Assembly (NCBI GenBank): GCA_033764955.1
Contig: JANRIL010000024.1
Location: 128,001 to 192,000, forward strand
DNA length: 64,000 nucleotides
Direction of reading: 5' to 3'
DNA from: Cyanobacteriota bacterium
GTDB taxonomy: Bacteria; Cyanobacteriota; Cyanobacteriia; Thermostichales; Thermostichaceae
Each line of letters starts with the position of its first letter. The stretch's first letter is position 1. The notes below the pieces were generated by a model. It made no database searches. It was not told where the DNA came from and was given only the letters and a program-made list of their open reading frames with translations. The position numbers and the translations under genes were made by a program. Of the stretch, positions 10,931 through 14,059 are shown in pieces.

Positions 10931-11659
10931 ATGGCTGGCCTTTATCTTTATGGCATTCTTCAGGCTCCTGGCCCCCGCCACTTGAATGTGCAGGGGATTG
11001 ATCGACAGCCTGTACAGGTTCAGGTCTTTGATCCTTTGGTTCTTTTGTATTCCGAGGCTCAACAGGAGCGATATCTGGCCAGCCGTGCCAATCTGCTTGC
11101 CCATGAGTCAGTCTTAGAAAAAGTGATGGCGGAAGGACACCGCGCCCTCCTACCCTTGCAGTTTGGTCTGGTGGCTAGTGATTGGGAGTTGGTGCGCCGC
11201 GATCTGATCGAGCCAAAGCAGGCGGATTTAGTGCGACTCCTTCACCATCTAGAAGGGAAGCGGGAGGTGGGGGTGAAAGTGTTTTGGGATCCCGATCAGG
11301 AGCTGCAACTGGCTCTCAACGAAAACCCTGATCTGAAACGGCAACGGGATGCCATGGCGGGCGCACCCCTAGGTTTGGATGCCGTTGTCAAGATTGGGCG
11401 AGAGCTGGAGCAACTGCTGGAAAATCGCCGCCACCAAATTACGGAAACTTTTGTGGCAATCCTTTCTCCCCTAGCCAGCGACCGCGTGGAGGGGGAACTG
11501 CTTACAGAAAATATGGCCTATAACGGCTCTTTTTTGATCCATTGGGAGGATGAACCGTTATTTGCCCAAAAAGTCGAGGATTTGGATCATCTGTTTCAGG
11601 GGCGGTTACGCATCCGCTACAACAATTTTACGGCTCCCTACAATTTCACCAAATTGTAA
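10931..11659 (+). CDS. GvpL/GvpF-family gas vesicle protein
   Basis: LYLYGI; HESVLE; LLPLQFG; EVGVKVFW; APYNF. Confidence 0.88.
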   Translation: MAGLYLYGILQAPGPRHLNVQGIDRQPVQVQVFDPLVLLYSEAQQERYLASRANLLAHESVLEKVMAEGHRALLPLQFGLVASDWELVRRDLIEPKQADLVRLLHHLEGKREVGVKVFWDPDQELQLALNENPDLKRQRDAMAGAPLGLDAVVKIGRELEQLLENRRHQITETFVAILSPLASDRVEGELLTENMAYNGSFLIHWEDEPLFAQKVEDLDHLFQGRLRIRYNNFTAPYNFTKL

Positions 11660-11662
11660 GGG

Positions 11663-12217
11663 ATGGCTGGGTTAAAGATCCTGGCAGTAGGTCTGGCTTT
11701 CCTGATCTTGGCTGGTCTAGGCATTTTGCTTTTGCCTTGGCGGGTAATGCTGCGCTGGCGCAAACCCTGGGGGGGGAATCCGGTGCTATGGTGGCAACTG
11801 ATTTTGCCCGTTTACCTGGGCGTGGTGAGCGGGCAGAGTCGCTGCTGGCGCTATCGATGGGGATCCCATTCCTACCAGGGGATCCTTCCCTCCCCTCAAC
11901 TAGCTCCTCTGATTCGTTTAGTGGGAGGGGATCCCTTAGCGGTTTGGCAGCTCCTTAGGGGCTGGCAGCCCCACCTGCGTCACTGGCAGGGAGAGGGATT
12001 CCTGGAGGCTGGCTTAGGGGATCCCGTGCTGGTGGGGCAGTGGATTGGCCTGATTGCCAGTCTTCCCTTACCCTGGGCAAGACGAATTCATCTCACCTTC
12101 AGCCAAACGGGATGGCGGTCGCGGGGAACCGTGCAGATGGAGGTGCGCCCCCTGCTGTTGTTTCCCGCTGGAATCCTCTTTCTTGGCAAACGCTGGCGAA
12201 AAAACCAACAAGCTTAG
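11663..12217 (+). CDS. Hypothetical membrane-anchored protein
   Basis: N-terminal hydrophobic helix; starts 3 nt after the gvpF-like gene. Confidence 0.6.
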   Translation: MAGLKILAVGLAFLILAGLGILLLPWRVMLRWRKPWGGNPVLWWQLILPVYLGVVSGQSRCWRYRWGSHSYQGILPSPQLAPLIRLVGGDPLAVWQLLRGWQPHLRHWQGEGFLEAGLGDPVLVGQWIGLIASLPLPWARRIHLTFSQTGWRSRGTVQMEVRPLLLFPAGILFLGKRWRKNQQA

Positions 12218-12275
12218 GGTTTGGGATCCAGATTCGCAGGTTAAGATATTCCTAACAGACATCGAGGTCAGGATC

Positions 12276-12485
12276 ATGTCTAGCCAAACCCACGCTTCCG
12301 CTCAACCCCTCACTTTTACCGCCGAACAGGTGGCTGAGATTGCAGAACGTCTCGAAAAAGATACCTATGCTTCTTTGTTTGGTTGTCTAGAAGATTGGCA
12401 TGCTCTTAAGTCAGCCGCTTTTCATGCCCCTAATCTGGTTGCTCCCTACATCCATCTTCTAGAATTAGAGATAGACGAGGATTAG
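12276..12485 (+). CDS. DUF2555 (IsiD-like) small protein
   Basis: VAEIAERLEKDTY...LEDWHAL...PYIHLL; ATG at 12276 after GAGG. Confidence 0.75.
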   Translation: MSSQTHASAQPLTFTAEQVAEIAERLEKDTYASLFGCLEDWHALKSAAFHAPNLVAPYIHLLELEIDED

Positions 12486-12545
12486 CATCTATCTGACGGT
12501 AACCCCTCACCTAGCTATACCCATATCAATAAATTCAGGAGAGTC

Positions 12546-12767
12546 ATGCGCCTTAAGTCTCATGAATCCCCTCGCCACCAAGGCAGAAATCGCCGTGGCA
12601 AGGGTGGCACTGCTCGCAAGCGGCAACTGGATAAACGACAACGCGCCCTAGTGCAGCGGTTGAAACCAAACAAGAGTTCTGAGCCAGAATCGGCTTCCCC
12701 CTCTTCATCTCTCCTCAGGCAAGGACACGGATCCCTGCCTTTTTTATGGCTATTGCTGGCGGCGTGA
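12546..12767 (+). CDS. Small basic protein; candidate ArfA/ArfT/BrfA-like ribosome rescue factor
   Basis: AGGAG SD upstream; Arg/Lys-rich with RRGKGGTARKR; hydrophobic tail ending LAA; function is inferred. Confidence 0.6.
   Translation: MRLKSHESPRHQGRNRRGKGGTARKRQLDKRQRALVQRLKPNKSSEPESASPSSSLLRQGHGSLPFLWLLLAA
12717..12745 (+). terminator. Intrinsic terminator-like hairpin inside the 12546-12767 CDS
   Basis: AGGCAAGGA-cacgga-TCCCTGCCT (one mismatch) followed by a T run, about 20 nt before the stop codon. Confidence 0.6.
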
Positions 12768-12875
12768 CATTCTGTCGATGCTGATACTTCCCATACAGCG
12801 CAGGACTCATAGCTCCTCGCACCTCTCAAATCTTAAAACCGACTAGGCCGCCCCCCACTACCTCTAGCACTGCTG

Positions 12876-13556
12876 ATGTCTTCTCCTATTTTTTCTATTG
12901 CTTGTGGGTGTGGATTGTTGGTCTTAGGGGGGGTCTTGGTGGGCTTGCCGACTCCCCAGCCGTTGTCTTCTTCCCCTAGTCAGGAAAGTTGGGTCACTTC
13001 GTCATTACCCAGCTCTTCCTCCCGTTGGTCAGAACCTGCCCACCGTGGCATACCTTCTCTTCCCCACCTGGCAAGAAAGGCTCTCTCCCACTACTTCACC
13101 ACCGGCGAGGTCTTGGCGCTACCTCAGCCTGTAGAGGTGGAATGGCAACGGGCAGCGGGGGTATTTGTTACCCTGAGCCACCAGGGCAAAACTCGCGGTT
13201 GCTGGGGATCCCTAACGCCGATTGCCCCCGACTTGGGAACGGCCACAATCCGAGCCGCGATAGCTGCGGCCACCCGCGATGGGCGTTATCCCCCTCTGCA
13301 AGCCAGCGAATTACCTGAGATCTCCATCCAAGTGGCGATTGTGCAAGAGATTCTGCCGATTGCCTCCGTCCACGAGATGGATCCGACGCGGTTTGGCTTG
13401 TGGGTGCGTTCGGGATCCCAGGCGGCGGTGGTGCTGGCGGGAGAAGCCCTCACCCCAGAATGGCAACTGGCTACGGCTCGTCGCTGGGCTGGCATCTCGG
13501 AGTCGGCGGGGGTGGAATTGTTTCGCGTTAAAACCCAGATGCTTTACGAGTTTTAG
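12876..13556 (+). CDS. AMMECR1 (AmmeMemoRadiSam A) domain protein with N-terminal hydrophobic segment
   Basis: GVFVTL...RGCWG; AATRDGRYPPL..SEL. Confidence 0.85.
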   Translation: MSSPIFSIACGCGLLVLGGVLVGLPTPQPLSSSPSQESWVTSSLPSSSSRWSEPAHRGIPSLPHLARKALSHYFTTGEVLALPQPVEVEWQRAAGVFVTLSHQGKTRGCWGSLTPIAPDLGTATIRAAIAAATRDGRYPPLQASELPEISIQVAIVQEILPIASVHEMDPTRFGLWVRSGSQAAVVLAGEALTPEWQLATARRWAGISESAGVELFRVKTQMLYEF

Positions 13557-14059
13557 GTTGCTTTTATCTTTAGCATTTCTTGCTTACTTTCGTGGTGTTT
13601 TTGGACATCTGTTAGGGGTTCCTTTCTGCTATCCGTGGAGTCACTTACTAAGTCTTGCCGTCGTTAAAGTCCTATTTACTTAACCATCGCTTCTTCCGCT
13701 ACTCAGTCCACGAGGAATCCCCAACCTCCTCGAAGTGTGTTCAAGAATACCTCGACTTCTGTTCTTTATTAAGAATTGCCACGGTCTTTTTTTAAGGGGC
13801 ACTTGAGTCTTATGCTTTGTGAGCAGTTCACAAAAACCCCTAATTTCTTGAGATCATTTTCTAAAGATGGGATCCCTTTTCTGCATAATTAATTACTCAC
13901 TATTTGTTGTTGCGATCCCTTATGTGGGTTTTATCGGTTCATCTGTCACCCCTCCCTACCCACTTTTGTTGAGGCGGGGGGCGCTCCTTTCAACGGTGGT
14001 TAGAGGAACTGCCCGCTCATCCCCTCCACCCAACGGATCCGGAAGCTACGATGCTCTGG

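Follow-up and report, generated by a model that had tools for sequence, protein, structure and literature searches.

A Cyanobacteriia-wide family of small basic proteins with a terminator-like element inside the reading frame, candidate back-up ribosome-rescue factors

Introduction

The small release-factor-dependent ribosome-rescue factors are described from narrow groups, ArfA from some beta- and gammaproteobacteria and BrfA mainly from Bacillus. The arfA frame has 72 codons and a stem-loop that leads to a non-stop mRNA, and it is repressed by trans-translation; the read-through tail of ArfA is hydrophobic, and it binds the mRNA entry channel through basic residues (PMC8012679). The brfA frame, also of 72 codons, contains an internal terminator whose T stretch covers codons 63-71, and BrfA is SsrA-tagged, undergoes SsrA-dependent degradation and performs RF2-dependent rescue in Bacillus subtilis (PMC6881298). 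ArfT was first described in Francisella tularensis and later placed in a wider family, Burroughs and Aravind treating it as one member of a broad group of proteins with a charged helix; its functional size is around 40 residues, the charged alpha-helix is proposed to recognize stalled ribosomes, and it works with canonical release factors (PMC6514570). The binding of basic residues to the mRNA channel is a trait of ArfA, SmpB and ArfB (PMC8012679), and the basic segments of ArfA, BrfA, SmpB and ArfB sense the empty channel, those of SmpB and ArfB turning helical there.

According to a 2021 review, further small release-factor-recruiting proteins are probable and would not be findable by sequence similarity (PMC8012679). 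In cyanobacteria, Feaga et al. reported arfB in 25 of 55 representative genomes, 55% being without it (PMC4235212). The first-pass annotation of the locus presented here knew of no small factor of this kind described in cyanobacteria, and we likewise found none in the full-text literature searched, which consisted mostly of non-subscription journals; the supplements of PMC6514570 could list some. Here we describe a short open reading frame from a cyanobacterial genome, the protein family to which it belongs, and its likeness to the known systems.

Results

The open reading frame and its surroundings

The window analyzed here is a stretch of 64,000 nucleotides of cyanobacterial DNA, and its features are given by their positions within it, all on the forward strand. 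The frame under study (12546..12767) extends from an ATG to a TGA over 73 codons plus stop, as a gene caller would annotate it, and inspection of the sequence reveals a Shine-Dalgarno-like AGGAG at 12537..12541, 4 nt 5' of the ATG. The translated 73-residue product contains 17 Lys/Arg versus 4 Asp/Glu, carries the motif RRGKGGTARKR (residues 16-26) and has PFLWLLLAA as its C-terminal end. The first-pass annotation had correctly described this very basic 73-residue frame, its AGGAG, its motif and its C-terminal end, as well as a hairpin followed by T6 at 12717-12745, inside the coding sequence and ahead of the stop codon.

Alignments of 20 and of 94 family members delimit a conserved basic domain at residues 1-42 (MRLKSHESPRHQGRNRRGKGGTARKRQLDKRQRALVQRLKPN, 12546..12671), in which AlphaFold2 predicts a basic alpha-helix at residues 21-39 (12606..12662). 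It is followed by a polar linker (residues 43-57, 12672..12716) that varies in sequence and length across the family, then by the intrinsic-terminator-like element at 12717..12745, made of a hairpin (12718-12739) and of six T at 12740-12745 that fall in codons 65-67. What is left of the frame (12746..12767), namely the remainder of codon 67 together with codons 68-73 (WLLLAA) and the TGA, is unconserved, and the part beyond the T-run is probably rarely translated.

The hairpin, GGCAAGGACACGGATCCCTGCC, consists of two stems of 4 and 3 pairs with a 1x1 internal loop between them, and an extra pair A12717-T12740 is possible. Its energy is -8.0 kcal/mol alone and -10.2 kcal/mol with its flanks, the family's median hairpin being stronger at -10.9, and the TGA starts 19 nt beyond the T6. 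A generic terminator scan of positions 11500-14000 returned 0 sites, missing this one because its stem is interrupted, and a 101-nt stretch at the terminator folds no better than its shuffles (z = -0.05). The terminator of the window is weak by itself, and it is the comparison across the family that carries the case. Judged from its sequence, the message would be expected to end at this element. A search of sequencing runs with positions 12200-12950 returned no RNA run holding the locus, the three metatranscriptome runs of the same study giving a share of 0.00.

Upstream, a gene for a DUF2555 protein (12267-12485, +) ends 60 nt 5' of the ATG, and downstream lies a gene for an AMMECR1-domain protein whose N-terminus carries a hydrophobic extension (12876-13556, +). 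Neither neighbor is kept across the family, and the neighborhoods of the loci show no conserved neighbor or operon, the commonest neighbor being present in 21 of 99 loci. Further upstream, the window encodes a protein of the GvpL/GvpF family (10931-11659, +; Pfam E = 1.9e-64) and, just 3' of it, a 184-aa frame without family (11663-12217).

A protein family spread over the Cyanobacteriia

By sequence comparison, the frame belongs to an unnamed, Cyanobacteriia-wide family defined by a basic domain of about 42 residues and a linker predicted to be disordered. We searched 401 genomes, sampled evenly across the phylum, with a 20-sequence profile and obtained a match in 114 genomes and 63 of 156 genera, nearly always as a single copy per genome. 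All 114 matches fall within the Cyanobacteriia (114 of 178 genomes), while the other classes have none (0 of 223; hand tally), and one family of small genomes within the survey is devoid of matches (0 of 29). The same type of search in 1.84 billion representative proteins yielded 461 clusters, of which 406 had E <= 1e-10; the best 150 of the 461 are all short (59-172 aa), with a match that is mostly N-terminal. A word-based search gave 26 relatives, among which the few named ones are hypothetical proteins of cyanobacteria. Named carriers include Thermostichus, hot-spring Synechococcus, Gloeobacterales, Pleurocapsa, Nostoc and Calothrix sp. PCC 6303, as well as Dolichospermum, Microcoleus, Planktothrix, Mastigocladopsis and Okeanomitos.

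Conservation is confined to residues 1-42, the linker and the tails being free to vary. Twelve positions are invariant in the 94-sequence alignment (K4, E7, S8, P9, R10, G13, R14, N15, A23, R24, Q27 and K30), and 87 of the 94 aligned homologues start with ATG. Family-wide, the linker is rich in N (22%), Q (15%) and K (14%). AlphaFold2, run on the 94-sequence alignment, predicts a single helix at residues 21-39, an extended N-terminus and disorder from residue 47 on, with a mean pLDDT of 89 for residues 21-30 and of 92 for residues 31-40, and values below 50 for residues 47-66.

No described family accounts for the protein. Pfam (at E <= 1 and E <= 10) and NCBIfam gave no family for the window protein, and a family scan of the 94 members returned low-complexity noise, the 25 families shown of 43 including no rescue factor. 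A profile search of the PDB found no relative of solved structure, with a chance match at E = 4.1 only, and the PHROGs and ESM Atlas searches found no named relative.

A terminator-like element inside the frame across the family

We counted as terminator-like any hairpin with dG <= -6 kcal/mol that leads directly into a T-rich stretch (6 T or more in 8). For the even sample, every match was fetched and the domain placed by HMM, and such a site lies in frame before the first stop in 107 of 114 genomes. In these 107 genomes it is found at codons 48-80 (median 62), and the first in-frame stop follows 5-250 nt beyond the start of the T-run (median 66). Among the seven exceptions, three have an in-frame hairpin with a weaker T tract and one runs off the contig end; the remaining three, cellular copies of 41, 50 and 50 aa, lack a terminator and end at an ordinary stop shortly past the domain. 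A single locus of the 114 (L236) has its first terminator-like site 3' of the stop, at a distance of 138 nt. The expectation raised with the first-pass annotation, that homologues would keep only the N-terminal part of the protein together with a terminator inside the coding sequence, is thus borne out, for about 42 residues and in 107 of 114 genomes.

A second, overlapping set of loci, from which 12 duplicates were removed and in which L050 was missed by the domain motif, gives a similar picture, with the site in frame in 96 of 100 distinct loci and not one locus whose first site follows the stop. Its four exceptions are L005, where no site was found, L036, with a weak hairpin followed by T8, L116, a stop-containing frame of 43 aa, and L121, not a homologue but an alphaproteobacterial chance motif. 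As controls, shuffled ORF tails contained a site in 9 of 495 cases, and the same strand elsewhere in the loci contains 0.41 sites per kb.

The hairpins themselves are diverse, with 80 distinct ones among the 96 loci and sequences that differ between clades. Their outer six pairs are 98% paired, versus 70% with shuffled partners, a count that is partly circular because the hairpins were chosen by folding. That the linker frame stays open is weak evidence in itself, since frames +1 and +2 are also open across the linker stretch in 72 and 41 of the 96 loci, respectively. The tails after the terminator are almost all different (105 distinct among 107), and the eight residues coded from the T-run onwards have a mean Kyte-Doolittle value of +1.36, exceeding +1 in 77 of 107 frames, a hydrophobic stretch that T-rich codons would yield anyway. 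The C-terminal LAA of the window protein, which the first-pass annotation had taken for a degron and a second layer of control, is found at the end of 3 of the 107 full-length frames. We therefore rejected it as a feature of the family.

A terminator within the frame would, as with arfA and brfA, deprive the terminated messages of a stop codon, and on this comparison the message very probably ends before the stop codon. The frames annotated by gene callers, of 58-148 codons, would then include tails that are probably never made.

Copies with an ordinary stop codon

The genome harbors a second copy of the domain (G000:C25:16698-16832; locus L152, 999-1133), which consists of 44 codons with a TAA right after the domain and a downstream hairpin without T-run. 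It lies 850 nt from the contig end, and the frames that flank it have no PHROG match. Contigs from IMG/VR contributed 22 loci, of which 21 are homologues (L238-L258) and one, L259, is doubtful, being a 361-aa frame with a match at its start only. Sixteen of the 21 homologues are 40-47 aa long and have their stop directly after the domain, five of these 16 with a terminator-like site 31-47 nt 3' of the stop; the other five of the 21 have the terminator inside the frame. Neighboring frames on these contigs match phage families, namely HNH and homing endonucleases, a 2OG-Fe(II) oxygenase, a formyltransferase of cyanobacterial type, a dCMP deaminase and the anti-repressor Ant.

Because the stop follows right after the domain in 16 of 21 phage-like copies and in L152, the domain of about 42 residues appears to be the functional unit, and the existence of stop-bearing copies suggests that the stop-less layout is a regulatory add-on. 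As far as the sequences tell, this layout is typical of the cellular copies.

The phage-like copies also show some variation of their own. One IMG/VR contig of 119 kb carries two copies (L238 and L239), and in a subgroup of the IMG/VR homologues KSPKRSAR replaces GKGGSAR. To this subgroup belongs the 43-codon copy L116, which is nearly identical to L250 and L251 and lies on a contig assigned to a MAG with the label Acidimicrobiaceae; this may be a phage contig that was mistakenly binned with another genome.

Rescue and release genes in the genome and its relatives

The genome encodes a tmRNA, with the tag ANNVVPFARKAAVLAA, and SmpB, and RF1 and RF2 are the only genes with an RF-1 domain (PF00472) that were found in it. 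Searching the whole genome (an assembly 89% complete) for ArfA (Pfam PF03889) at E <= 1 gave no match, and RqcH-type domains (NFACT_N, NFACT-R_1) were not found in the same 89%-complete assembly. The missing RqcH-type domain is probably an assembly gap, as 40 of 41 relatives have RqcH-type NFACT-R_1 frames; short ArfB-like frames are present in 12 of the 41. In hand tallies of the survey, a third RF-1-domain gene occurs in 59 of 114 carriers of the family versus 38 of 64 non-carriers of the class, and 26 genomes have neither a family member nor a third RF-1-domain gene. A distribution complementary to ArfB-like or RqcH-like genes was not seen in these counts.

The RF2 frame (L023 1390-2457, minus strand; G000:C47) starts with MLRTIFD, and relatives open at TIFD without a start codon, a pattern consistent with the programmed +1 frameshift that is usual for prfB further upstream. 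Complex prediction for residues 1-66 of the product together with this RF2, run without controls, gave scores of 0.00, 0.37 and 0.00 against a mark of 0.32.

Comparison with known rescue factors

In gene layout the family resembles both arfA and brfA, yet by the sequence tests applied here it is a member of neither family. The likeness to brfA resides in a terminator within a frame of about 70 codons, with the T-run at codons 65-67 in the window and the site at a median of codon 62 in the family, compared with codons 63-71 in brfA. As for BrfA, the product of the window would be expected to be tagged by tmRNA, and its basic region would suit the mRNA channel. In contrast to BrfA, which is described mainly from Bacillus, the cyanobacterial family is class-wide (114 of 178 genomes); and whereas BrfA's C-terminal region is reported to enter the channel, the basic conserved part lies here at the N-terminus and in the middle, with a free linker making up the C-terminal part. 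No sequence relation to BrfA was found in the NCBIfam scan, which gave no family, or in the PDB search, which gave the above chance match.

Like arfA, the cyanobacterial genes appear, at the level of sequence, to give rise to stop-less messages, the stop lying 19 nt past the T6 in the window and the terminator preceding it in 107 of 114 genomes. A hydrophobic tail beyond the T-run and basic residues suited to the mRNA entry channel are further points shared with ArfA, as repression through trans-translation would be. Unlike ArfA, the window protein does not match Pfam PF03889 and lacks an adjacent Lys-His motif, having K4-S5-H6 instead; and whereas the stem-loop of E. coli arfA is also an RNase III site, we see here a plain hairpin and T-run. 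With ArfT the family shares a functional size of around 40 residues and, by prediction, a charged helix, and reliance on canonical release factors would be a further point in common. ArfT carries a glycine-lysine motif, KKGGS-like, and a glycine-lysine motif is also present in the window protein. The first-pass annotation had compared the KGKGG of the window protein with the motifs of both ArfA and ArfT, and no membership in these families was detected with Pfam or NCBIfam, up to E <= 10. A further difference is that ArfT is not described as the product of a stop-less message in the passages considered here (PMC6514570).

The tails of SmpB and ArfB offer another parallel, as both are basic, lack structure on their own and turn helical in the mRNA channel, and D29-K30-R31 of the window protein is similar to the DKR of SmpB. 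The Asp of this triplet, however, is not conserved outside the clade of the window protein. Derivation of the family from an SmpB tail was rejected, since hhalign, comparing the 94-sequence alignment with the SmpB of the genome, gave a probability of 0.2%.

Discussion

By analogy with ArfA and BrfA, we lean towards regarding the protein as a new back-up ribosome-rescue factor that would recruit a release factor and be made from a stop-less message. The hairpin and U-tract inside the frame would end most messages at about codon 66, without a stop codon, and on messages terminated in this manner ribosomes would have to stall at the 3' end. As long as tmRNA-SmpB is available, the product would be tagged and degraded; once trans-translation is saturated or lost, untagged product would build up and could serve as a back-up rescue factor, like ArfA and BrfA. 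Its basic helix (residues 21-39) would enter the empty mRNA channel of non-stop ribosomes, and the invariant N-terminal segment (K4, ESPR 7-10, GRN 13-15, GKGG 18-21) would lie at the decoding centre and recruit a class-I release factor, resulting in peptidyl-tRNA hydrolysis. The 73 residues contain no GGQ motif and no RF-1 domain; unlike ArfB, the protein could therefore not hydrolyse alone. From the parallel with the known systems we infer that termination takes place at the site in vivo, that the product is tagged and binds the ribosome, and that it recruits a release factor and brings about rescue. The first-pass annotation had proposed a release-factor-recruiting rescue factor under two layers of control; of this reading, the terminator inside the coding sequence stands, joined now by a conserved domain and an architecture like that of brfA (PMC6881298), and the degron layer falls away.

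The message could also be stop-less and repressed by tmRNA while its product responds to failing trans-translation in some other way than by recruiting a release factor. It could be a factor of the ribosome-silencing or hibernation type, a regulator that binds RNA, or an inhibitor with which phages, too, tune the translation of their host. We regard a role of this type as unlikely, although several observations are compatible with it. The stop-less layout supports it equally with rescue, a single basic helix would bind many RNAs, the constitutive copies on phage-like contigs fit host take-over as well as rescue, and the presence of the family does not complement that of ArfB-like or RqcH-like genes. 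Against it, the naturally stop-less arfA and brfA, as described, both encode release-factor-dependent rescue factors, and the 12 invariant residues all lie within residues 1-30, which points to a specific docking surface rather than to generic RNA binding.

It is improbable that we are dealing with an ordinary small basic protein, translated over its full frame, whose gene has a hairpin and T-run that overlap the end of the coding sequence for compactness or that terminate poorly. Such a situation would agree with the weak hairpin of the window, with the three cellular and 16 viral-contig homologues that have a normal stop, and with a few loci in which the stop comes only 5-12 nt beyond the start of the T-run, so that some transcripts could include it. 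Yet the stop is generally distant from the T-run (median 66 nt, up to 250 nt), and neither the length nor the sequence of the tails in between is conserved (105 of 107 distinct). Moreover, the first terminator-like site follows the stop in 0 of 100 loci and in one of the 114 of the even sample (L236), and those homologues that use a stop place it after residue 41-50 or so, not beyond a terminator.

A short frame followed by a terminator is also the anatomy of an attenuator, and the transcript would measure only about 200-250 nt, but it is very improbable that the locus serves a downstream gene as leader peptide or attenuator, or that it is a small RNA in which a frame is open by chance, given the strong conservation at the protein level (12 residues invariant class-wide, 406 clusters at E <= 1e-10), the ATG start of 87 of 94 aligned homologues, and downstream genes that are not conserved, the lack of a conserved neighbor making a leader-peptide role unlikely.

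Returning to the release-factor-recruiting rescue factor, we tentatively put forward a wider picture, which may hold in all its parts. The family would be the fourth release-factor-dependent rescue family to have evolved independently. It would also be the first one of Cyanobacteria, occurring in about two thirds of the sampled Cyanobacteriia and switched on by trans-translation failure via the in-frame terminator. Cyanophages would have captured a constitutive, stop-containing form of it, keeping host ribosomes free during infection.

The conserved in-frame terminator is a signature readable from sequence alone, and it singles out a candidate in an entire class of ecologically dominant phototrophs, in a family that could receive a name and a profile. 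If our reading is true, the same regulatory trick would have evolved a third time, and phages would possess one more translation tool. The peptide of about 42 residues would lend itself to structural work on how a release factor opens without a stop codon. The finding would also bear on how cyanobacteria without ArfB could survive the loss of trans-translation.
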